From NCBI GenBank assembly GCA_965249275.1, contig CBDFLQ010000006.1, positions 96,001 through 160,000 of the forward strand: 64,000 nt of DNA, read 5' to 3'. The notes under the pieces were generated by a model. The model was not told the DNA's origin. It saw only the letters and a list, made by a program, of their open reading frames with translations, and searched no databases. Source of the DNA: Dehalococcoidia bacterium. GTDB lineage: Bacteria; Chloroflexota; Dehalococcoidia; Plut-88900. This document shows positions 25,292 to 53,874 of this stretch, piece after piece; within the stretch, counting starts at the first letter, position 1; every line of letters starts with the position of its first letter. A program made the position numbers and the translations under genes.

Positions 25292-26494
25292 CTATTCGGA
25301 TTCGTCGGATTGCTCGGACGGCATCCTTCGCTTGGCCCGCCGGACCGCAGCTGCCGCAGCCGATTCCTTGCCTGCCGCAGACCTTCTTTGTGTTGCGGCA
25401 GCCTCACCCTCTTCCTCCGACTCCTCCGCCTCGGCAGAATCATCCTCTGCGGCGGCACTCTCCTCCGCTGTCGATTCGTCTGCAGTTTCCTCGGCTACCG
25501 GTTCTTCGGCCACTTCCACCTCGGCCTCAGCGACAGACGTTTCTTCCGCCACGGGGGCCTCTTCCTCTACCTCAGCTACTGGAGCTTCTTCTGCCACCGC
25601 CACTGCGGCTTCTTCTTCCATCTCAGCAACAGGAGTCTCTTCCTCTGCCTCTGCTACTGGAGCCTCCGCCGCCATTTCCGCCACAGGGGCTTCTTCTTCC
25701 ATCTCAGCAACAGGTGTCACTTCCTCTACCACTGCTACTGGAGCCTCTTCTATCTCCGCCACGGGGGCTTCCTCTTCCACTTCAGCAACAGGGGCCTCTT
25801 CTTCTACCTCAGCTACTGGAGCTTCTTCAATCTCCGCCGCCGGGGCTACTTCTTCCATCTCCGCAACAGGAGGTTCTTCCACCTCAGCAACAGGAGCCTC
25901 TTCGACTACTTCAGCCACCACCGCCTCTTCCTGCACCTCAGCTACAGGTGCTGTTTCCGTCGTCTCCTCAACAGCCGGCGCCGACACACTCGCCGTTTCC
26001 CTACTCTTAGGTGTTCTCGCCTTTCGCTTGACCGCTGGCTTTGCAGGCGCAGCCTCGACAACCTGTACGGTCACCACGGGTTCAACCTCTTCAGCCAGCC
26101 TGAAAGTGACCTGATAGTCGCCTACGGCCTTAATTGGCTCTGCCAGATCAAGATCCCGTGCCTCGATCTTTTCTCCCGTAGCCTCGGCAATCGCCTCTGC
26201 AACCCTCGCCGACGATACCGACCCGTACAATCGACCCGTAGGCCCGCTCCTCGCTTCGATGATGACCGTCAGGCCCTCCAGCTTGGGTGCAAGCTGTGCT
26301 GCCCGTGCCCCAGAAATACCGTGCCGCAGAGCCTCGGCTCGCTTCAGGGCATCTACTCTTCGCAGCTGGTCCGGGGTGGCCAGCACTGCTAGGTCCTTCG
26401 GGAACAGGTAGTTCCGCGCGAACCCGTTTTTCACTTCTTTTACGTCACCCGTTTTGGCGACATTCTCGACTTCTTCCAGGAATATAACTCTCAC
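25292..26494 (-). CDS. rplI: 50S ribosomal protein L9 with a long acidic repetitive tail
   Basis: MRVIFLEEV...VKNGFARNYLFP, RLYGSV; about 250 extra aa with EEEAPVAE repeats. Confidence 0.9.
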   Translation of the reverse strand: MRVIFLEEVENVAKTGDVKEVKNGFARNYLFPKDLAVLATPDQLRRVDALKRAEALRHGISGARAAQLAPKLEGLTVIIEARSGPTGRLYGSVSSARVAEAIAEATGEKIEARDLDLAEPIKAVGDYQVTFRLAEEVEPVVTVQVVEAAPAKPAVKRKARTPKSRETASVSAPAVEETTETAPVAEVQEEAVVAEVVEEAPVAEVEEPPVAEMEEVAPAAEIEEAPVAEVEEEAPVAEVEEEAPVAEIEEAPVAVVEEVTPVAEMEEEAPVAEMAAEAPVAEAEEETPVAEMEEEAAVAVAEEAPVAEVEEEAPVAEETSVAEAEVEVAEEPVAEETADESTAEESAAAEDDSAEAEESEEEGEAAATQRRSAAGKESAAAAAVRRAKRRMPSEQSDESE

Positions 26495-32766: not shown

Positions 32767-32798
32767 TCCTCTTCCCGGGTAGGTGTGGCATAATCCCC

Positions 32799-32828
32799 TT
32801 GACCTTATATGAACACTTGTGCTATATT
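32799..32828 (+). promoter_or_regulatory. Sigma70 promoter with LexA-like operator (element 1)
   Basis: TTGACC-N18-TATATT with GAACACTTGTGC (32811-32822) in the spacer. Confidence 0.7.
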
Positions 32829-33071
32829 AGCCTCCAGGTCCCGACACCCCACGTCGGCCCTAATCAGGAAAAGGACCAAGGAGTTCCATGAGTCGCATGG
32901 CCCACACATCGGCCCGTCGTTACCGAGCGGTATGGGACCGCCCGGCCACCGACACGCGCCTCCTCCCCAATCCCTATTCGCCCTGTCCCCATCTCAACAC
33001 CCACTACAAGCGCTGCCCAAAGGCCCAACGCCTGTGCCTTCGCAGCGATCAATCATCGTCCCGCCCCCTGC

Positions 33072-33636
33072 ATGGAAGGTCCCCGGACAAATCAAGGCAC
33101 GCCCTGCTGCAGGGCAGCCGCCTCCGCATCAGCGCCCCCGTCGAGGGGCATACTTACGTCGCCGACGTAGTCCTTGCCGGCGAATCCCAACAGTCGGATG
33201 AGCGCCGACTCAAAACCAACGCACCATTTAAGGATTCCACCGTCGTCACAACCGGAGAACTTCCGACTACGAACGCCGGTCACTGGTCCACGCTCCTATC
33301 CCTTGGGATGGTCGAGCACTTCTGGTGGACGGGACTGCCCCACAGCGAGAATTTCTCGCGTCTCGTCCACATCCCCTCAGAAGTTAGGGGCTATCGCACA
33401 GCCGTCGCCGATGTCAAACCTCCGTTGAGGCGGACACCGCGCATCGGTGCAATGGCTGGGCGCTTCTGGTGGTCGAGACTGCCCCACACCGAGATTCCCT
33501 CGCGTCTCCTCCACGTCCTCTCAGAAGCTCGGGGCTGTCGCAGAGTCGTCGCCGATGTGGAACATCCGCTGTGGCGGACAATAGGCATCGGTGCAGGCGT
33601 CGCCGTCTTCTTGCGCAACCGTCCGGGACCTTCCAT
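33072..33636 (+). ncRNA. Candidate large structured RNA, copy 1
   Basis: Closing stem ATGGAAGGTCCCCGGAC / GTCCGGGACCTTCCAT, many internal hairpins, 144-nt tandem domain duplication. Confidence 0.55.
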
Positions 33637-33728
33637 CCCCTCCCCCTCTGCCCCTCTAACAACCAAAACAGGTGTATACTCCCTCCATCCGGCATCCGGC
33701 CTTAGTCACCGACACGGGAGCAAGCGCC

Positions 33729-36615: not shown

Positions 36616-37707
36616 TTAGTCGTACATGATCACGCTTCGAGCTATGTGCGCGTCCCTCATGTCGTCGAAAGCCTCGTTGATGTCTTCCAGCTTGATCCTC
36701 TTGGAAATTATCTCGTCCAGCTTCAGCCGACCCTGTCGGTACAGCTCCATGTACTGTGGCATATCCACCCGGAAGTGATTGGAGCCCATGTTGCTTCCCT
36801 GGATTCGGCGCCCGTCCAGCATGGATGGACCATCTATCGTGATCTTCGTCCCCTGCGGGATCATGCCGATAACAGTCGCCGTGCCCCCCTTGTCTAGCAT
36901 GTCGTAGCACTGCTCCGCCGTCACGGCCTTCCCGATCGCCTCGAAGGCATAGTCGACTCCCAGGCCTCCCGTGAGCGACTTTACCTTTTCAACTACCCCG
37001 CCCTTAGACGCATCTATTACGTTAGTTGCCCCAACCCTCTGCGCAAATCCCAGCTTGTCTTCCACGGCGTCTATCGCTATAACTTTCGCCGCCCCGGCAA
37101 TGATCGCTCCATTGATCGCGCTCAGCCCCACCCCGCCACACCCAACAACCGCCACCGTGCTCCCCGGCCTCACCCTGGCTGTCCTCATCGCCGCCCCGAC
37201 TCCCGTGGTCACACCACAGCCAATCAACGCCTGTACTTCGATTGGCACGTCCTCTTCCACAACCACCGCCGCATTCTCATGGACTAGCATATATTCCGCA
37301 AAGGAGGACAGGTTCATCGCTTGGTGGATAACCTCGTCGCCCTTGTGCAGGCGTGGCGACTCGTTACGCCCCCTCTTGAGGCCTACTCCCCTGCAGTTCA
37401 CCATTTCACCCTGGATGCACTTGTCGCAGGTGCCACAGAACACGGAAAGGCAGGTTATGACCCTGTCTCCTGGCTGATGGTACGTCACCTGAGACCCGAC
37501 CGCTGCCACCGTCCCCGCAGCCTCGTGTCCCAGGATAGTCGGCAGAGGGCACTTGTACAGCCCGTCTATATAGTGCAGGTCGCTGTGGCAGACGCCGGAG
37601 GCGCCGGTCTTTATCAGGATCTCTCGGGGTCCGGGCTCTCCAACGTCAACCTCTTCGATCGTTACGGGCTCGAAGGGCGCTCTCATGACAGCTGCTTTCA
37701 TCTTCAT
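36616..37707 (-). CDS. Zn-dependent alcohol dehydrogenase (class III-like)
   Basis: GVCHSD, GHEAAG, CGTCDKC, GCGGVG. Confidence 0.92.
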   Translation of the reverse strand: MKMKAAVMRAPFEPVTIEEVDVGEPGPREILIKTGASGVCHSDLHYIDGLYKCPLPTILGHEAAGTVAAVGSQVTYHQPGDRVITCLSVFCGTCDKCIQGEMVNCRGVGLKRGRNESPRLHKGDEVIHQAMNLSSFAEYMLVHENAAVVVEEDVPIEVQALIGCGVTTGVGAAMRTARVRPGSTVAVVGCGGVGLSAINGAIIAGAAKVIAIDAVEDKLGFAQRVGATNVIDASKGGVVEKVKSLTGGLGVDYAFEAIGKAVTAEQCYDMLDKGGTATVIGMIPQGTKITIDGPSMLDGRRIQGSNMGSNHFRVDMPQYMELYRQGRLKLDEIISKRIKLEDINEAFDDMRDAHIARSVIMYD

Positions 37708-37771
37708 TTCAGGGGTCCTCCTATGGATTGGGTCAATCGGCCTTGGTTATTCGTGTCGTCGTATGGTCAGG

Positions 37772-38854
37772 CTAATTAAAAGTGAGCACGCTGCGGGCCA
37801 CGTGACCTTCCTTCATATCGTCGAAGGCTTTGTTAACTTCGTCCAGACTGAGCTCTTGGGAGATCATCTCCTTCAGCTTCAATCGCCCTTGTAGGTACAG
37901 CTCTATGTAGCGGGGCATGTCGATCCGGAATCTGTTGGAGCCCATGCTGCTCCCGCCAATCCTTTTCTCGCTCAATAGCGAGGGGCCGTCCAGGTGGATC
38001 ATGGTCCCTTCCGGGATCATCCCGATAACCGTGGCCAAGCCCCCGGAATCGAGCATGTTGTACGCCTGCTCCGCCGTCTCTTTCAGCCCGATAGCCTCGA
38101 ATGAGTAATCTACGCCCCTCGGCGAGAGTGAAAACACCTTATCCACAGTCCCCCCACCCGAGGCGTCAATCACGTCGGTCGCCCCAAGCTCTCTCGCCAG
38201 CGCCAGCTTCGTCTCTATGGTATCGATGGCTATAATCCGCTCCGCACCCGCAAGCACCGCTCCCTGCAATGCGCTCAGACCGATGCCCCCCAACCCCAGC
38301 ACCGCAACCGTGCTTCCAGGTGCAACCTTTGCAGTGTTCAGGGCAGCGCCCACACCCGTCGTAACCGCACACCCGATCAACGCCACCTCTTCCAGGGGAA
38401 CGTCCTTCCGTATCTTGCAGGTGGCGTTTTCGTGGACCAGCATGTACTCGGCGAACGTGGACAGGGACGAAAACTGGTGCATGATGTCCCCGTTCTGTCG
38501 CAGGCGGGGCGGCTCGGTGGGGAGACGTTCCATTCCCTTACTACGGCATAGGTTAGGATGCCCGCTAAGGCACTTGTCGCATACGCCGCAGAATACCGAC
38601 AGGCAGGTGATCACATGGTCTCCCGGCTTGACGTAGGTCACCATCGAGCCTACGGCCTCTATCACCCCCGCTGCCTCGTCACCCAACACAGTGGGCAAGG
38701 GAAACGTGTACTTGCCTTCCATATAGTGGAGGTTGCTGTGGCACACCCCCGAGGCTACCGTCCGCACCACCACCTCGTTCGGCCCCGGATCGTCGATCTG
38801 TACGTCCTCAATGGTTAGCGGGGTATCGACCTCGCGTAGTACGGCTGCTTTCAT
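37772..38854 (-). CDS. Zn-dependent alcohol dehydrogenase (tandem paralogue)
   Basis: GVCHSN, GDEAAG (His replaced by Asp), CGVCDKC, GLGGIG. Confidence 0.9.
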   Translation of the reverse strand: MKAAVLREVDTPLTIEDVQIDDPGPNEVVVRTVASGVCHSNLHYMEGKYTFPLPTVLGDEAAGVIEAVGSMVTYVKPGDHVITCLSVFCGVCDKCLSGHPNLCRSKGMERLPTEPPRLRQNGDIMHQFSSLSTFAEYMLVHENATCKIRKDVPLEEVALIGCAVTTGVGAALNTAKVAPGSTVAVLGLGGIGLSALQGAVLAGAERIIAIDTIETKLALARELGATDVIDASGGGTVDKVFSLSPRGVDYSFEAIGLKETAEQAYNMLDSGGLATVIGMIPEGTMIHLDGPSLLSEKRIGGSSMGSNRFRIDMPRYIELYLQGRLKLKEMISQELSLDEVNKAFDDMKEGHVARSVLTFN

Positions 38855-45670: not shown

Positions 45671-45700
45671 TTGACCCAATCGAAACACATGTACTATATT
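45671..45700 (+). promoter_or_regulatory. Sigma70 promoter with LexA-like operator (element 2)
   Basis: TTGACC-N18-TATATT with AAACACATGTAC in the spacer. Confidence 0.65.
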
Positions 45701-45882
45701 CGCCCCAGGCTCCGACCTTGTACGTCGGCCCTAATAAGGAAAGGACTAAAGGAGTCCCATGAGTCGCACCAGCCTAATCAGGCCCCGTCACACCCGAGCG
45801 GTATGGAACCGCCCGGCGCCCGACACGCGCCTCCTCCCGAGTCCCTCTTTCAACACCGTGTCCCTCGGATTCCCTCTACCAA

Positions 45883-46285
45883 GCGATGGAAGGTCCTTCG
45901 ACTGTCGGCGGCATTCTCCCTCTAAGGGCCTTTGCCGATATATCGCCCCCTCATCCGGGCGTTTGCTCCTCGCCGACTTTACCCTCGCCGAGGATATATC
46001 CGCGTCTTTTGACGCGTTTGCCAGGGCCTTAGTGCCCTTATCCGGCTCCACCACCCGCTGTAACTGGAGATTCTCCTTCGGTCCACCGCGGCATCGAGTC
46101 GTTATGCCGTCCCACGCAGCGGTCGAGCGCTGCCGCCGGACGGATAATCCCCACCCAGAGACGCCCTCGACTTCGGTATGTCTCCTCCGACATGCGTGGG
46201 GATATCGCAGGACAGCCGTCGACGCCACCGGCGTCGGCGCAGGTGTCGTCGTCTTCCTGCTTACCAGTCCCGGACCTTCCATCGC
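45883..46285 (+). ncRNA. Candidate large structured RNA, copy 2
   Basis: Perfect 14-bp closing stem GCGATGGAAGGTCC / GGACCTTCCATCGC; homologous to copy 1. Confidence 0.55.
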
Positions 46286-46302
46286 CTCCCCTTCCTTTGC
46301 CC

Positions 46303-49495: not shown

Positions 49496-51808
49496 TCAAG
49501 GCCTAGCTTGATTGAATTTTGAGAGCCATGCAAGATCACTCTCTAATGCGGGGCGACGCCAATATATGCGTCTCACTTCCGATACAAATATCGGATCCGT
49601 ACTTGATACCGCGTGCCAGATTCTTAATGTTTCTGTGAGTGCTTGAATGTCCTCCAATTCATCATATGCGAGAGCAAGTCCCCGGTAGATTCGCGAACGT
49701 GGAACTGAATATTCTTCTGGAGGAGCCTTTAGTGCCCGCCGGAATAAATCTACCGCAGCGTATCGAGCGCTCTTCGCCTGTGAGAATTGGTTGAGATTGT
49801 CCAAGGTCTTGGCTTCTCGCGACCTTAGGTAGCCCGCGCGGTGGCAACGTCCATCTGATTCCTCACACCTTTCGAGTGCCAGTTGCGAAACTTTGATCGC
49901 GTTCCTCCACAGCCCTAGAAGATTCTCCTCAGTATCCCTCCAAACCGCTTCCTCCGCAGAACGGATTTCCAATTCCGTCCAGTGGAAATACATCTCTGGT
50001 TTTCTGGGCCCGAACTTATGGGCGTTCTTGAAAGCCTCCTGAGCCTCTGACCGGAATTGTTGAGGGTTCCTAGCATATATCCATCCTAGCATTCCATACA
50101 GGTCAGGATCGTCTCTTAGCTCTCCAGTCATTGCTAACACTAATTTGTTGGTGGCAGCCTCTATTCCAGAGTGATCGTGTTCCTCTTTAGCATCCCTAAT
50201 CGCCTTCCCTATCGCCAGACGCTTTGCTTCCGTTGTTCGCTCTCCTGTTAGGCCCTTATATGCTGACACCGCCGATAGTAACTTCGGGTGCTTCGCGAAT
50301 GTGCTTCGAACTAAACGCCGCGTATTGGAATTGATGCTGTAAGCAGGCTCGGAAGTCTCTTTATTATCCACGCGGTGTATCAGTCCACTACTTAATAAGG
50401 TAGTGACACCGCTTTCCACATCATCGTCTGCCAGCCCCCCCACCTGGCTAATCTCAACAACGCGCAGAGGCCGATTGCCCACTGCAATTGAGATAAGCGT
50501 ATCTTCAGTCACACCTCCAAGGCGTTCCAACTGCCGTCGCAACGCATAAACGCGGGCCCCATCTCCTTTGCGGTGCTCCCATTCTTCAATTGCCTTCTTA
50601 ACCCCTACCAGTGCCGCATAACGGATGAGGTCATCGACGAACAGGGGATAGCCTTGTGTGACAGCTCGGATTCTAACAATGTTCTTTAGACATACATTTT
50701 CGTCGACGCCATATTCACCTGCGCGCCCAGCAATGAAGTTTTGGAGAGTCTCGTCGTCAAACGGAGGTACCTCCATGTAACGTATTCCTGGAATCTGTTG
50801 CCGCGAGGTAAACAAAACCTTGCTTGCGGTAGGGCGCAACTCGAACAGCAACATTTCCGCAGTATCCTGATCGTCAATCACTGTATCTAGATCGTCAACG
50901 ATCAGCAGACAGCGTGTATTCCTCAGTTCGGAGAGCATTTCATCTTTCGACACGTCGTAGCGATCACTTCCGTATAGTGCATTCACAATGCGATTACAGA
51001 ATGTAGGCACATCCTCAAAATCAGGTATCCGCTCTTTAGTAGAACGATCTACGTATTCAATCTTCTTTGCAGTGAGCCACACGATCGCGTCAATGTAATC
51101 AGACGCGATGTCTCGTATTTCCTGAGCGAACTTATGGGCCAGAGCGCTCTTCCCAACGCCACCATATCCCCACACCATGCGCTGTTTAGAGTCACTGGTA
51201 AACCAGTCCAACAACTCCCTCAATTGCTCTGATCTTCCTAGGAATTCGTCATAGATTTCGTCATGCGGGGGCAATTGAACCTCAATGGGTCTACCGCCCC
51301 AAGGATCAACTCCCGAAAGTAACGAGTCCAGAATGTCGTGAAACTCTTTCCCTATCGGGGAATTGATTGCATCCAGTAGTATTTGTGCGTTTTGGATAAA
51401 CCGGATTAAATCCACGCGGCGAATGATGTGTTCTTTGCGGCGATGCGCAAGGTTATGTCTGAGTTCTGTAATCTCTCCCAGATATACTTTCACTCGCTCT
51501 TGCTGACCCAATAAGCAGGAGAAAATCTTCCAATTACCAATGACAATGTTAGAGAGATGCTCAATGCCGAACAGTTCTTCATCAGATTTTCCCATGTCTA
51601 CGACCCGCATAGGGTTGTTCAACATCTTCTCTACGCGTAGGAACTCTTCCTCCTTAAAGTGTCTTCGCACTCCCTCCTTTAGCCAGTCATCTCCAATGGC
51701 CATCTGTAAGTTCTTTACTATCGGCTCATGGAATCCATCTAAGAAATCCAGTAGTTTCTCGTTGGCAAAGTCATTTATGTTCAAGATTGTTAGCCCCCTA
51801 TACCACAA
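49496..51808 (-). CDS. Swt1-like HEPN + NB-ARC/STAND ATPase + TPR protein (candidate antiphage defence)
   Basis: RHNLAH (RX4H), Walker A GYGGVGKS, Walker B LLIVDDLD, TSR, GYPL, helical repeat C-terminus; visibly lower GC. Confidence 0.8.
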   Translation of the reverse strand: MWYRGLTILNINDFANEKLLDFLDGFHEPIVKNLQMAIGDDWLKEGVRRHFKEEEFLRVEKMLNNPMRVVDMGKSDEELFGIEHLSNIVIGNWKIFSCLLGQQERVKVYLGEITELRHNLAHRRKEHIIRRVDLIRFIQNAQILLDAINSPIGKEFHDILDSLLSGVDPWGGRPIEVQLPPHDEIYDEFLGRSEQLRELLDWFTSDSKQRMVWGYGGVGKSALAHKFAQEIRDIASDYIDAIVWLTAKKIEYVDRSTKERIPDFEDVPTFCNRIVNALYGSDRYDVSKDEMLSELRNTRCLLIVDDLDTVIDDQDTAEMLLFELRPTASKVLFTSRQQIPGIRYMEVPPFDDETLQNFIAGRAGEYGVDENVCLKNIVRIRAVTQGYPLFVDDLIRYAALVGVKKAIEEWEHRKGDGARVYALRRQLERLGGVTEDTLISIAVGNRPLRVVEISQVGGLADDDVESGVTTLLSSGLIHRVDNKETSEPAYSINSNTRRLVRSTFAKHPKLLSAVSAYKGLTGERTTEAKRLAIGKAIRDAKEEHDHSGIEAATNKLVLAMTGELRDDPDLYGMLGWIYARNPQQFRSEAQEAFKNAHKFGPRKPEMYFHWTELEIRSAEEAVWRDTEENLLGLWRNAIKVSQLALERCEESDGRCHRAGYLRSREAKTLDNLNQFSQAKSARYAAVDLFRRALKAPPEEYSVPRSRIYRGLALAYDELEDIQALTETLRIWHAVSSTDPIFVSEVRRIYWRRPALESDLAWLSKFNQARP

Positions 51809-51957
51809 ATTAACTTACCCTGTGATTCTAAGAACAAGATATCATCTGTATGCACAGCATGAGTAGCCTCCACCCCCAATTGACCCCCACCCCCTCCGTC
51901 ATTCCAGCCGCCGAGAGCCGAAATCCATCCCATCTCCCTTCTACCCAGTACTGAACT

Positions 51958-51997
51958 AGAGGCAGAGGTTGGCGCAGAAGCGCCAACCTCTGCCTCT
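51958..51997. terminator. 18-bp perfect hairpin
   Basis: AGAGGCAGAGGTTGGCGC-AGAA-GCGCCAACCTCTGCCTCT. Confidence 0.6.
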
Positions 51998-52110
51998 GTT
52001 CTTATCTCTCCCTCTCCCTTAATGGCCCTAAGGGAGAGGGGGATAAAGGGGGTGAGGGTTCCCCGGTGGGGTTGGGGCGTTGTCCCCCGCCTAGGTGTGC
52101 AATCAACCCC

Positions 52111-52140
52111 TTGACCTTACCTGAACATCCGTGCTACTAT
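52111..52140 (+). promoter_or_regulatory. Sigma70 promoter with LexA-like operator (element 3)
   Basis: TTGACC-N18-TACTAT with GAACATCCGTGC (52123-52134). Confidence 0.7.
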
Positions 52141-52347
52141 CCCCACCGTTCGAACACCACCCTAACTATCTCAAGGAGGAACCAAAAACCCAGGGAAGCC
52201 CACCCGACCCACCCGAGGACTCAACGTCCAAGCCCATCCCAATGGCCCTCACACGGGGCCCGCGGCTCAAGCGAAAGCGGAACGTCCGCCTATGGAGAAA
52301 CGCCATCTCCTCACTCCATCGGGTCCCGTGCCCCTTCCCTACCCCCA

Positions 52348-52775
52348 GGCGATGGAAAGACGCCCTGGTTCGCTATCGTTCCATGTGAGGCTCCTAACGG
52401 AGATGCCGCTCCTTCAAGCGGAATAGCGGTCGGATAGGCCCGGCGCCGAGGTCCTCTCGGTACACCGTCCGCTTAATGAAGCCGGGAGCCGGTGGTCTAC
52501 GCGCTCCGGGTCGCACCGGCAAACTTGAACACACTACGCCTGCAGAGGCCCGGCATCGGACGCTGGACGGGCCTCCTGGCCGCCCTATAGCGGTGCAGCC
52601 AACCCCCGGAGTCGGGCTCGGACCTGCTGGCCCTGAAGGTCCCTGCCCATGTCCAGTGTATACAGGGCCAAAGGCCGCAGCAGCGGCAAAAGCGGGCCGG
52701 CGCCCTTGCCCCAGGGCGTCGGAGCGCCCGAAGCACATGAACAGGGGCAGCGTCCAGCAAGCGTCTTCCATCGCC
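52348..52775 (+). ncRNA. Candidate large structured RNA, copy 3
   Basis: Closing stem GGCGATGGAAAGACGC / GCGTCTTCCATCGCC; nested helices GCTGGACG/CGTCCAGC, CTGCCC/GGGCAG, CCCGGC/GCCGGG, GCCGGTG/CACCGGC. Confidence 0.6.
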
Positions 52776-52864
52776 AACCTCCCAGACAGAACAATCAAAA
52801 CCCTACCCCCCACAACTGAATAGAAACCCGGCGTGTCACTAATCTACTGGACGAGTTCCCCCAA

Positions 52865-52893
52865 TTGACCCCCCACCCCCGACATGCTACCAT
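52865..52893 (+). promoter_or_regulatory. Probable ribF promoter
   Basis: TTGACC-N17-TACCAT. Confidence 0.55.
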
Positions 52894-52938
52894 CCCACCT
52901 AGTGACCCCTATCCCGTGGTAGGGGTCGCATTCGGATA

Positions 52939-53874
52939 TTGAGCCACCCTGTGCTGGAAGAGCTAACCGCCCCCCCACCTGAGAGACACACCGCCGTCGC
53001 CATCGGGGTGTTCGACGGTGTGCACCTTGGACACCAGGCCCTCTTCCGAAGCACCATCGCCCAAGCCCAGGCCCGTGGCCTCGACTCAGCAGTCGTAACC
53101 TTTCGAAACCACCCCCTTACCGTCCTCTCGCCCACCTTCCAACCCCGCTACCTCATGGACCTGCAAACTCGCCTTGAAGCAATCTCATCCTTCGGCATCG
53201 ACCATACCGTCGCCATCAACTTCACCCGGGAAGTGTCACAGCTAAGGGCGAGAGAGTTCGTGCAGCGACTTTCCGAAGGCCTCAACATGAATGTCCTCGT
53301 CTGCGGGCAGGACTTCGCCCTTGGCAAGAACCGCGAGGGAGACCTTGAGACCCTGACAAAGCTGGGAGAGGACTACGGTTACCAGGTCGTCTGCCAGGAC
53401 GTAATCCAGGACGGAAGCCTTACCGTCAGCAGCACCGCCATCCGGCAAGCCCTCGCCGAGGGAAACATCGAATTGGCCATGCGCCTCATGAGCAGACCCT
53501 TCCGACTCTCGGGGCCCGTGGTGATCGGCGACAAGCGGGGCCGGCTCCTCGGCTTCCCCACCGCCAACGTCGATGTCCCTCCCGACCGCGCCCTTCTAGC
53601 CGACGGCATATACGCCACCCGCGCCCTTGTCAAAGACCGAACCTTGGACTCCATAACTTACATCGGCAACAAGCCCACCTTCGACGGCGAGAAGCGTGCC
53701 ACTGAGGTCTACATCTTCGATTTCGACGAAGACATATACGGCCAGTCCATCGATGTAGATTTCCTGGCCAAGATCAGGGGCGACATGCGCTTCTCCGGCG
53801 CCCAGGAGTTGATCGACCGGATGAACATTGACGTAGAAATGGCCCGAAATGCCCTCTCATCAAGCCTCAGCTAA
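52939..53874 (+). CDS. ribF: Bifunctional riboflavin kinase/FAD synthetase
   Basis: GVFDGVHLGHQ, VSSTAIR, GFPTAN, GNKPTF. Confidence 0.96.
   Translation: MSHPVLEELTAPPPERHTAVAIGVFDGVHLGHQALFRSTIAQAQARGLDSAVVTFRNHPLTVLSPTFQPRYLMDLQTRLEAISSFGIDHTVAINFTREVSQLRAREFVQRLSEGLNMNVLVCGQDFALGKNREGDLETLTKLGEDYGYQVVCQDVIQDGSLTVSSTAIRQALAEGNIELAMRLMSRPFRLSGPVVIGDKRGRLLGFPTANVDVPPDRALLADGIYATRALVKDRTLDSITYIGNKPTFDGEKRATEVYIFDFDEDIYGQSIDVDFLAKIRGDMRFSGAQELIDRMNIDVEMARNALSSSLS

Follow-up and report, generated by a model that had tools for sequence, protein, structure and literature searches.

Bacterial MITEs and other non-autonomous IS derivatives, of which Correia, ERIC and MITEAba12 are examples, can carry promoters and fold as RNA. 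Tn7-like and CRISPR-associated transposons have TG...CA ends, generate a 5-bp duplication and insert in one orientation at a fixed distance from their target, with the right end proximal. The promoter-targeting eukaryotic retrotransposons Ty3, Ty1 and Tf1 are tethered by transcription factors or the Pol III machinery. Insertion sequences can also bear RNAs of 100-400 nt with defined guide roles (the IS200 5'UTR RNA, the omega RNA of IS605/IscB and the bridge RNA of IS110), and these sit in autonomous elements beside a transposase or nuclease. Finally, the stalks of rRNA and tRNA operons are cut by RNase III. We know of no bacterial transposon that uses the edge of promoters as a 'safe harbour', and none is described in the titles and abstracts returned by a full-text literature search.

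Here we consider positions 52348-52775 of the window, the whole 64-kb stretch of DNA that was analysed. In our view it is probably the folded, non-coding core of one copy of a non-autonomous transposon family that homes to promoters, carries a structured RNA as cargo and exchanges its cores between copies. The family is MITE-like but large, at 740-900 bp, and is confined to one Dehalococcoidia genus. The initial annotation had read the segment as the third copy of a non-coding RNA fold; the non-coding fold stands, yet it is the cargo of a mobile repeat and not a lone RNA gene, and 'copy 3' is one of at least ten core types in a family that targets promoters.

Architecture and distribution of the repeated unit

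The segment forms the core of a repeated unit of roughly 0.8 kb (window positions about 52092-52859), which consists of a sigma70-type promoter, a leader of about 200 nt, a closing stem of 15-25 bp, a branched core of about 400 nt and a C/A-rich tail. The features of the window copy, all on the plus strand, are as follows.

52092-52110, plus strand: inner remnant of the left end, GGTGTGCAATCAACCCC, from alignment with copies that have TGATCCCGTTCACATAGAGGGGTGACATCA-CCCC-TTGAC
52111-52140, plus strand: the element's own sigma70-type promoter (TTGACC, 18 nt, TACTAT, with TG upstream)
52148-52347, plus strand: conserved 5' leader module of about 200 nt, weakly structured overall
52173-52179, plus strand: AAGGAGG in the leader
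52244-52260, plus strand: covarying hairpin in the leader
About 52277-52301, plus strand: optional small hairpin insert in the leader
52302-52312, plus strand: GCCATCTCCTC in the leader
52348-52368, plus strand: 5' strand of the closing stem, GGCGATGGAAAGACGCCCTGG, whose outer GGCGATGGAAG is invariant in the family
52369-52753, plus strand: variable multibranch core, of the type termed group 2
52754-52775, plus strand: 3' strand of the closing stem, CCAGCAAGCGTCTTCCATCGCC
52776-52823, plus strand: C/A-rich 3' tail, ending in CCACAACTGAATAG
52827-52859, plus strand: degenerate right terminal inverted repeat, CCCGGCGTGTCACTAATCTACTGGACGAGTTCC (canonical form GGTGTGTCACTAATCTACCGAACGAGTACA)
52860-52864, plus strand: five bases, CCCAA, that separate the right end from the host -35 and occupy the place of the target-site duplication
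52865-52893, plus strand: host promoter of the ribF-like gene (TTGACC, 17 nt, TACCAT), the insertion target, outside the element

The remnant GGTGTGCAATCAACCCC is a GTGACA-type motif immediately upstream of the -35 hexamer; the outer 18 nt or so of the left terminal inverted repeat are absent from the window copy and REP-like repeats stand in their place. Promoter-like sites within 51800-53000 number two, against 0.3 expected. Across the family the -35 and -10 hexamers of the element promoter are at least 90% conserved while the spacer is variable, and TTGACn-N16-19-TAnnnT is found at the expected position in 136 of 163 copies. The copies share one plan, in which a TTGAC -35 at a fixed place and a TAnnnT -10 are followed by the conserved leader, a variable core of 350-500 nt between the invariant GGCGATGGAAG and the equally invariant CTTCCATCGCC, and a C/A-rich tail that ends in CCACAA-CTGAATAA, with small extra hairpin units in some copies. 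No intrinsic terminator was found at the 3' end of the element.

An alignment of 106 distinct leaders contains 35 invariant columns. The leader hairpin at 52244-52260 occurs with at least four compensating versions of its stem (GGCCC/GGGCC, GGTCGC/GCGACC, GGGCGGC/GCCGCCC and GGGCAGC/GCTGCCC) and its loop tolerates insertion; over the same 106 leaders RNAalifold reports no covarying pairs and a consensus fold of only -10.6 kcal/mol, and the folding z-score of the leader is -1.98. A closing stem occurs in 165 distinct copies, drawn from nine genomes, and its inner part varies on both strands with the core type (GACGC/GCGTC against GGTCC/GGACC; CTGG/CCAG against ACTA/TAGT). Compensatory changes can be seen clearly in both the closing stem and the hairpin of the leader, but are sparse within the core.

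Within its own 2.9-Mb assembly, 751 bases around the fold match 58 places, ten of them near full-length with 78-100% identity, and a BLAST search yields 54 copies with the region that precedes the fold in common. A second leader type, that of window copies 1 and 2, accounts for 13 additional copies; these two window copies (32798-33650 and 45700-46300) represent a sister subfamily, in which the different leader has AAGGAG followed by ATG. Pairs of closing-stem anchors number 98 in this genome as an uncurated upper count; at about 0.8 kb apiece they could amount to some 2-3% of the genome, provided that all of them are genuine. Grouped by similarity, the cores of this genome fall into sets of 13, 12, 10, 6, 4, 3, 2, 2, 1 and 1 copies. 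The core at 52348-52775 belongs to group 2, which has the ten copies of the third set and 38 distinct copies in the whole data set. At least ten core types can be distinguished, mutually unrelated in sequence and alike in size range and closing stem. Two other kinds of repeat were noticed in the window: one with a 24/27-nt period, present in about 12 copies at 25543-25982 and apparently in frame within a gene, and direct repeats 1153-1156 nt apart at 36627-38374 (families D3, D4 and D7; 67-73% identical), possibly a tandem gene duplication.

The family was found in all eight sister species, and hence in all nine species of one Dehalococcoidia genus; it is absent from the three other genera of the same family and the 29 other families sampled. 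A class-wide search with the leader, in which the best two candidates per genome were scored, placed it in 9 of 401 genomes, all from one genus of 222, and did not find it in the other 392 sampled genomes of the class. The exact leader pattern occurs at 80 or more loci in six chromosomes titled 'MAG: Dehalococcoidia bacterium' and nowhere in viral contigs, and BLAST against a plasmid collection gave no match to the family.

Folding and coding potential of the core

All eight helices proposed in the initial annotation were located, each in its place or a few bases off. On the plus strand they are the following.

52348-52363 with 52761-52775, plus strand: closing stem, with a single bulged A
52562-52569 with 52751-52758, plus strand: long-range helix GCTGGACG/CGTCCAGC
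52643-52647 with 52746-52750 and 52648-52652 with 52735-52739, plus strand: helix CTGCC/GGCAG plus long-range CATGT/ACATG
52371-52376 with 52423-52428, plus strand: helix CGCTAT/ATAGCG
52439-52444 with 52481-52486, plus strand: helix CCCGGC/GCCGGG
52488-52494 with 52514-52520, plus strand: helix GCCGGTG/CACCGGC
52620-52625 with 52637-52642, plus strand: helix GGACCT/AGGTCC
52697-52706 with 52713-52722, plus strand: helix CCGGCGCCCT/AGGGCGTCGG

A conserved multibranch fold with a long closing stem is borne out. These helices are kept in 82-100% of cells in an alignment of 38 distinct homologous group-2 cores from nine genomes. RNAfold gives 52348-52775 an energy of -204.1 kcal/mol, compared with -186.7 +/- 6.6 kcal/mol for 100 dinucleotide shuffles, of which one folds as well (z -2.65). 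In the z-score check suggested in the initial annotation the segment folds modestly better than its shuffles, and the opposite strand does equally well: the reverse complement has a z-score of -3.35, so the fold signal does not identify the strand. The fold of 52348-52775 is real but modest. The core of window copy 2 (45882-46286) reaches a z-score of -7.68.

Double-sided changes within the proposed helices are few, amounting to 7, 4 and 7 cells in three helices of the 38 cores; covariation among the group-2 cores is sparse because the copies are similar. For two of the long-range helices, GCTGGACG/CGTCCAGC and CATGT/ACATG, the minimum free energy (MFE) and RNAalifold predictions select competing pairings, and covariation in these cores does not settle the choice. 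The RNAalifold consensus for the group-2 core comprises 142 pairs. Consensus helices of the plus strand contain 427 G.U cells against 140 A.C cells, a count that is biased toward the strand folded. By MFE the minus strand is the more stable in 147 of 165 copies, which is probably an effect of G+U composition; an assignment of the strand by folding energy was rejected, since the minus strand folds better.

In size and branched fold the core resembles the large bacterial non-coding RNAs, and it might accordingly belong to a known family such as OLE, GOLLD, ROOL, HEARO/omega RNA, group II introns or 6S RNA. We give this next to no credence: no Rfam family reaches its gathering score anywhere in the 64-kb window, a permissive scan of 52050-52900 returned two chance-level matches only (13.6 and 12.6 bits), and equally permissive scans of seven loci with other core types gave nothing above chance.

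The initial annotation had also pointed to the early end of the reading frame in this copy, and the frame that contains the ATG at 52242 does stop at 52388 (ORF 52131-52388). Its view of the copy as the best evidence for a non-coding function was right in direction; the real evidence comes from the comparison of many copies, which shows 52348-52775 to be non-coding. The ATG at 52242 is ACG, AAG or GTA in sister copies. Among the 38 distinct group-2 cores the variable columns are distributed over the three codon phases as 70/78/71 (chi-square 0.52), and a length not divisible by three is found in 234 of 254 indels. Pfam has no match to any of the four longest ORFs across the element, and ORFs differ between copies in frame and length and translate into strings rich in P, R, S and G. 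These observations bear on the reading that the unit is a decayed or fast-evolving family of small-protein genes with a conserved promoter, ribosome-binding site and N-terminus. The conserved AAGGAGG, the ORFs of 150-250 aa in some copies and the AAGGAG followed by ATG in window copies 1 and 2 speak in its favour. We nevertheless hold it to be highly improbable, given the non-conserved ATG, the shifting frames and lengths, the absence of codon periodicity and of a Pfam match, and a leader type in the window copy in which no start codon follows AAGGAGG.

Transposition and promoter targeting

In the genome that carries the window, 17 copies are bounded by imperfect inverted repeats of about 30 bp, with TGATCCCGTTCACATAGAGGGGTGACATCA at the left and GGTGTGTCACTAATCTACCGAACGAGTACA at the right; the left end pairs with TGTACTCGTTCGGTAGATTAGTGACACACC, the reverse complement of the right end, and the ends are of the TG...CA type. 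One repeat of about 30 bp per end was noticed by eye. The distance from end to end is 739-1199 bp, and 739-902 bp in all save two copies (1029 and 1199 bp). Terminal inverted repeats and 5-bp duplications are retained by about a third of copies, and the outer left repeat is missing from two thirds, the window copy included. The 5-bp target duplication is exact in 10 of the 17 pairs of this genome, and in 16 of 32 rows once loci from sister genomes are added.

We compared 89 element copies in sister-genome loci with this genome in search of empty sites. Three clean pairs were obtained, occupied in a sister species and empty here, and in each the five bases are single-copy when the site is empty. 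At the first, GCCTCCCA-element-TCCCT-TAGCAT corresponds to GCCTCCCT-TAGCAT; at the second, GCTTTCG-element-TTTCG-TTGACA corresponds to GCTTTCG-TTGACA; and at the third, CCAAAA-element-CTCAA-TTGAGC corresponds to CCCAAAA-TTGAGC. These three comparisons confirm transposition. The family has the inverted repeats, fixed-length duplication and presence/absence polymorphism of a MITE or non-autonomous DDE transposon and contains no internal transposase ORF, while exceeding the miniature size of tens to a few hundred base pairs. We also considered an invertible segment, with a core that flips between inverted repeats, and rejected it as no reversed core occurs among 54 copies.

Two further arrangements of the element and its ends were seen. 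At one locus (L059 of G002, compared with G000:C7:434679-435886) the sister genome has two head-to-tail elements where this genome has the distal one only; in the tandem, the older copy and the host promoter stand on either side of the newer copy. Outside the window, on the minus strand at G000:C6:~928790-928830, a left terminal repeat, TGATCCCGTTCACATAGAGGGGTGACATCAACCCC, stands alone. It directly precedes a TTGCGA-17-TAAAAT promoter, downstream of which come a CIRCE-like inverted repeat and groES-groEL, and it may be a vestige that has become the upstream portion of a heat-shock promoter.

The element would be mobilised in trans by a putative DDE (rve-type) transposase. This genome encodes three IS-sized rve families (381, 401 and 329 aa) with ends unlike those of the element, all rve frames in the genus are of 530 aa or less, and no TnsB-sized protein was seen. 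TniQ (PF06527) was found in none of the nine genomes, but the same search also failed in all 14 control genomes. No transposase with matching ends was present in this genome (87% complete) or in the 8-kb loci, and no inverted pair of end motifs encloses a gene in this genome, where the end motif outside the family amounts to scattered single matches and the solo left end at groES.

Every bounded copy has a -35-like hexamer immediately after its right-hand duplication, and a -10 another 17-18 nt downstream. Among 42 distinct right flanks, a promoter-like site begins at offset +5 from the right end in 20 and at offsets 0-4 or 6-12 in none; the same test applied to random genome positions succeeds in 14 of 20000. 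TTG stands at +5 in 25 of the 42, and a -10-like hexamer lies at the right spacing in 30, flanks with a poor -35 among them; several of the remaining 12 flanks are spurious matches to the motif with three mismatches. The element has the orientation of the host promoter, its right end lies 5 bp upstream of the -35, and downstream of most copies, no more than a few hundred bases away, lies a co-oriented ORF. The window copy conforms to this pattern, with its right end followed by CCCAA, TTGACC-17-TACCAT and the ribF-like gene at 52939. The target may be chosen via the whole promoter, with the -10 at a fixed distance, possibly through bound RNA polymerase.

The ribF locus has further repeats of its own. 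In one sister genome (G003) unrelated DNA joins the same promoter at ...ACCATT-CCCCAATTGACC; since it makes up the upstream side of the junction, we rejected the locus as a clean empty site. A 22-nt stretch, CCCCCAATTGACCCCC(C)ACCCCC, which includes the ribF -35, occurs at both 51873-51895 and 52862-52886 of the window and so flanks a block of repeats and element of about 990 bp, which suggests a longer duplication or repeated insertions at the ribF promoter. Between 51893 and 52090, upstream of the element, lie three other types of short repeat or hairpin: a unit of the CCGTCATTCC..GAGAGCCGGAATCC type at 51893-51940, a perfect, terminator-like 19-bp hairpin at 51957-51998, and a CTCCCTCTCCC...GGGAGAGGG hairpin at about 52010-52060. 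The genome as a whole is rich in REP-like units, and IS copies lie inside them. Downstream, the ribF leader hairpin GACCCCTATCCCGTGGTAGGGGTC (window 52895-52935; loci L149-L156) is conserved in all nine species of the genus and has no Rfam match; it may be a regulatory element of this riboflavin kinase/FAD synthetase gene.

The promoter of the family has itself been a target. An rve-type IS with a frame of 423-438 aa occupies the same spot in all nine copies examined (L089:3331-4650 and the eight loci L157-L164), with GTGACAnnnACCCC on one side and, on the other, CCCC-TTGAC from the promoter of the family itself. This is a second mobile element, an autonomous one, whose insertion site is the upstream edge of a -35 hexamer.

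Selection on the cores, their likely role and comparison with known systems

We defined orthologous copies as those with the same flanks in this genome and a sister species. At four loci, in five species pairs, orthologous cores are 91-98% identical, compared with 80-86% for the third codon positions of adjacent genes, and the leaders at these loci are 81-97% identical. At three other orthologous loci the cores are unrelated (45-53%) between flanks that are 97-100% identical. Upstream of ribF the element is present in eight of the nine species, and none of the seven sister copies matches the core of the window copy. Retained cores diverge less than the neighbouring third codon positions, so selection keeps them; entire cores are also exchanged, presumably when copies recombine through the leader and tail that they have in common.

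There is little connection between the type of a core and the protein cluster encoded downstream of it. The ten group-2 copies precede seven different clusters, out of 40 in all, and the sole recurring cluster is amidohydrolase-like, with seven members, four of them behind one core type. This cluster (motif D.DxH..EP) was named by eye only; other downstream genes resemble FAD-dependent oxidoreductases. A riboswitch-like tie of core type to downstream gene was rejected on these grounds, together with the swapping of cores at orthologous genes.

Contigs from RNA libraries match 52193-52772 over up to 209 nt with 93-100% identity. They come from four runs of one study labelled sponge metagenome and carry no strand, start, end or level, and DNA carry-over is possible for this multi-copy element, so that they weakly suggest its transcription. 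These contigs do not cover 51969-52169, 52773-52973 or the neighbouring genes, barring short conserved pieces at about 52989-53026, and the uncovered parts prove nothing.

Several roles for the core can be weighed against these data. The unit could be a mobile cis-regulatory module, whose promoter reads through the fold into the downstream gene so that the fold acts as a long 5' leader, be it a riboswitch-like sensor, a stabiliser or an attenuator. Every element lies directly upstream of a host promoter and gene and is co-oriented with them, no intrinsic terminator was found at its 3' end, and distinct core types could sense distinct signals. However, a single core type precedes unrelated genes (the ten group-2 copies and their seven clusters), the downstream host promoter stays intact and core swaps are tolerated at orthologous genes, and we regard this reading as unlikely.

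We find it unlikely, too, that the fold has no RNA function, the family being an ordinary selfish MITE and its helices either features of the DNA (binding sites for transposase or host factors, hairpins in single-stranded DNA) or chance pairing in GC-rich sequence. Consistent with such an origin, the folding score is equal on both strands, the z-score of the window copy is modest, double-sided changes are few and good folding is common among MITEs. Set against this, the retained cores are conserved above third codon positions, their own leader and their flanks; 136 of 163 copies have a conserved promoter directed into the core; at least ten unrelated cores share their size range and closing stem; and the core of window copy 2 folds far better than its shuffles (z -7.68).

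For the function of the core RNA we infer, and purely infer, a processed stable RNA, and we favour such an RNA, delimited by the closing stem, over both a cis-acting leader and a functionless fold. The element's own promoter would drive a plus-strand RNA of about 0.65 kb, in which the closing stem might mark off a stable structured core, as a stalk for its processing or stabilisation. RNA, rather than protein, would then be the selected cargo, and it would act regardless of the downstream gene, either in the maintenance and spread of the element or as a trans-acting host RNA.

A more far-reaching proposal is that bacteria have their own form of promoter-targeted integration. The transcription machinery itself may lead the element to sigma70 promoters, as a -10 at a fixed distance counts even in sites with a poor -35. 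Large RNAs of a new class, with one scaffold and interchangeable cores of about 400 nt, would be the cargo, and these RNAs could act in trans as decoys for RNA polymerase or other proteins, or as a cofactor in transposon targeting or maintenance. We advance this combination as speculation and consider it improbable as a whole.

If our preferred reading of a promoter-homing transposon with structured-RNA cargo is true, the transposon finds promoters with single-base precision and always settles just outside them, and the transposase responsible would become a candidate for tools that insert DNA close to promoters. As cargo there would be a large structured-RNA family, with one scaffold and many swappable, selected cores, in uncultured Dehalococcoidia. 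The elements would also offer a testable entry to the roles of large bacterial non-coding RNAs and to the effects of repeats on gene regulation.

Among the described systems, the bacterial MITEs share with the element the lack of a transposase gene, terminal inverted repeats, a fixed-length duplication, dispersed copies and presence/absence between relatives. It differs from them in its larger size (740-900 bp), in its ten or more exchangeable cores of about 400 nt, which are under purifying selection, and in an insertion that is oriented and base-pair-precise at promoters; the parent IS was not found. With the Tn7-like transposons it has in common the 5-bp duplication, the TG...CA ends and an insertion in one orientation that places the right end nearest the target, at a set distance, whereas its target is a whole class of sites, promoters, and not one attachment site or guide-specified site. 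Like Ty3, Ty1 and Tf1 it integrates at the upstream edge of transcription units and avoids the disruption of genes, but it is a bacterial DNA element with inverted repeats. As with the IS-borne RNAs, a mobile element carries a structured RNA with its own promoter, here a predicted one; in contrast to them, the element has no protein gene and combines a constant scaffold with variable cores. Finally, its closing stem recalls the stalks of rRNA processed by RNase III, in that sequences flanking a large structured RNA form a long, near-perfect helix; the RNA that it encloses is non-ribosomal, and a role as a stalk is suggested by analogy.
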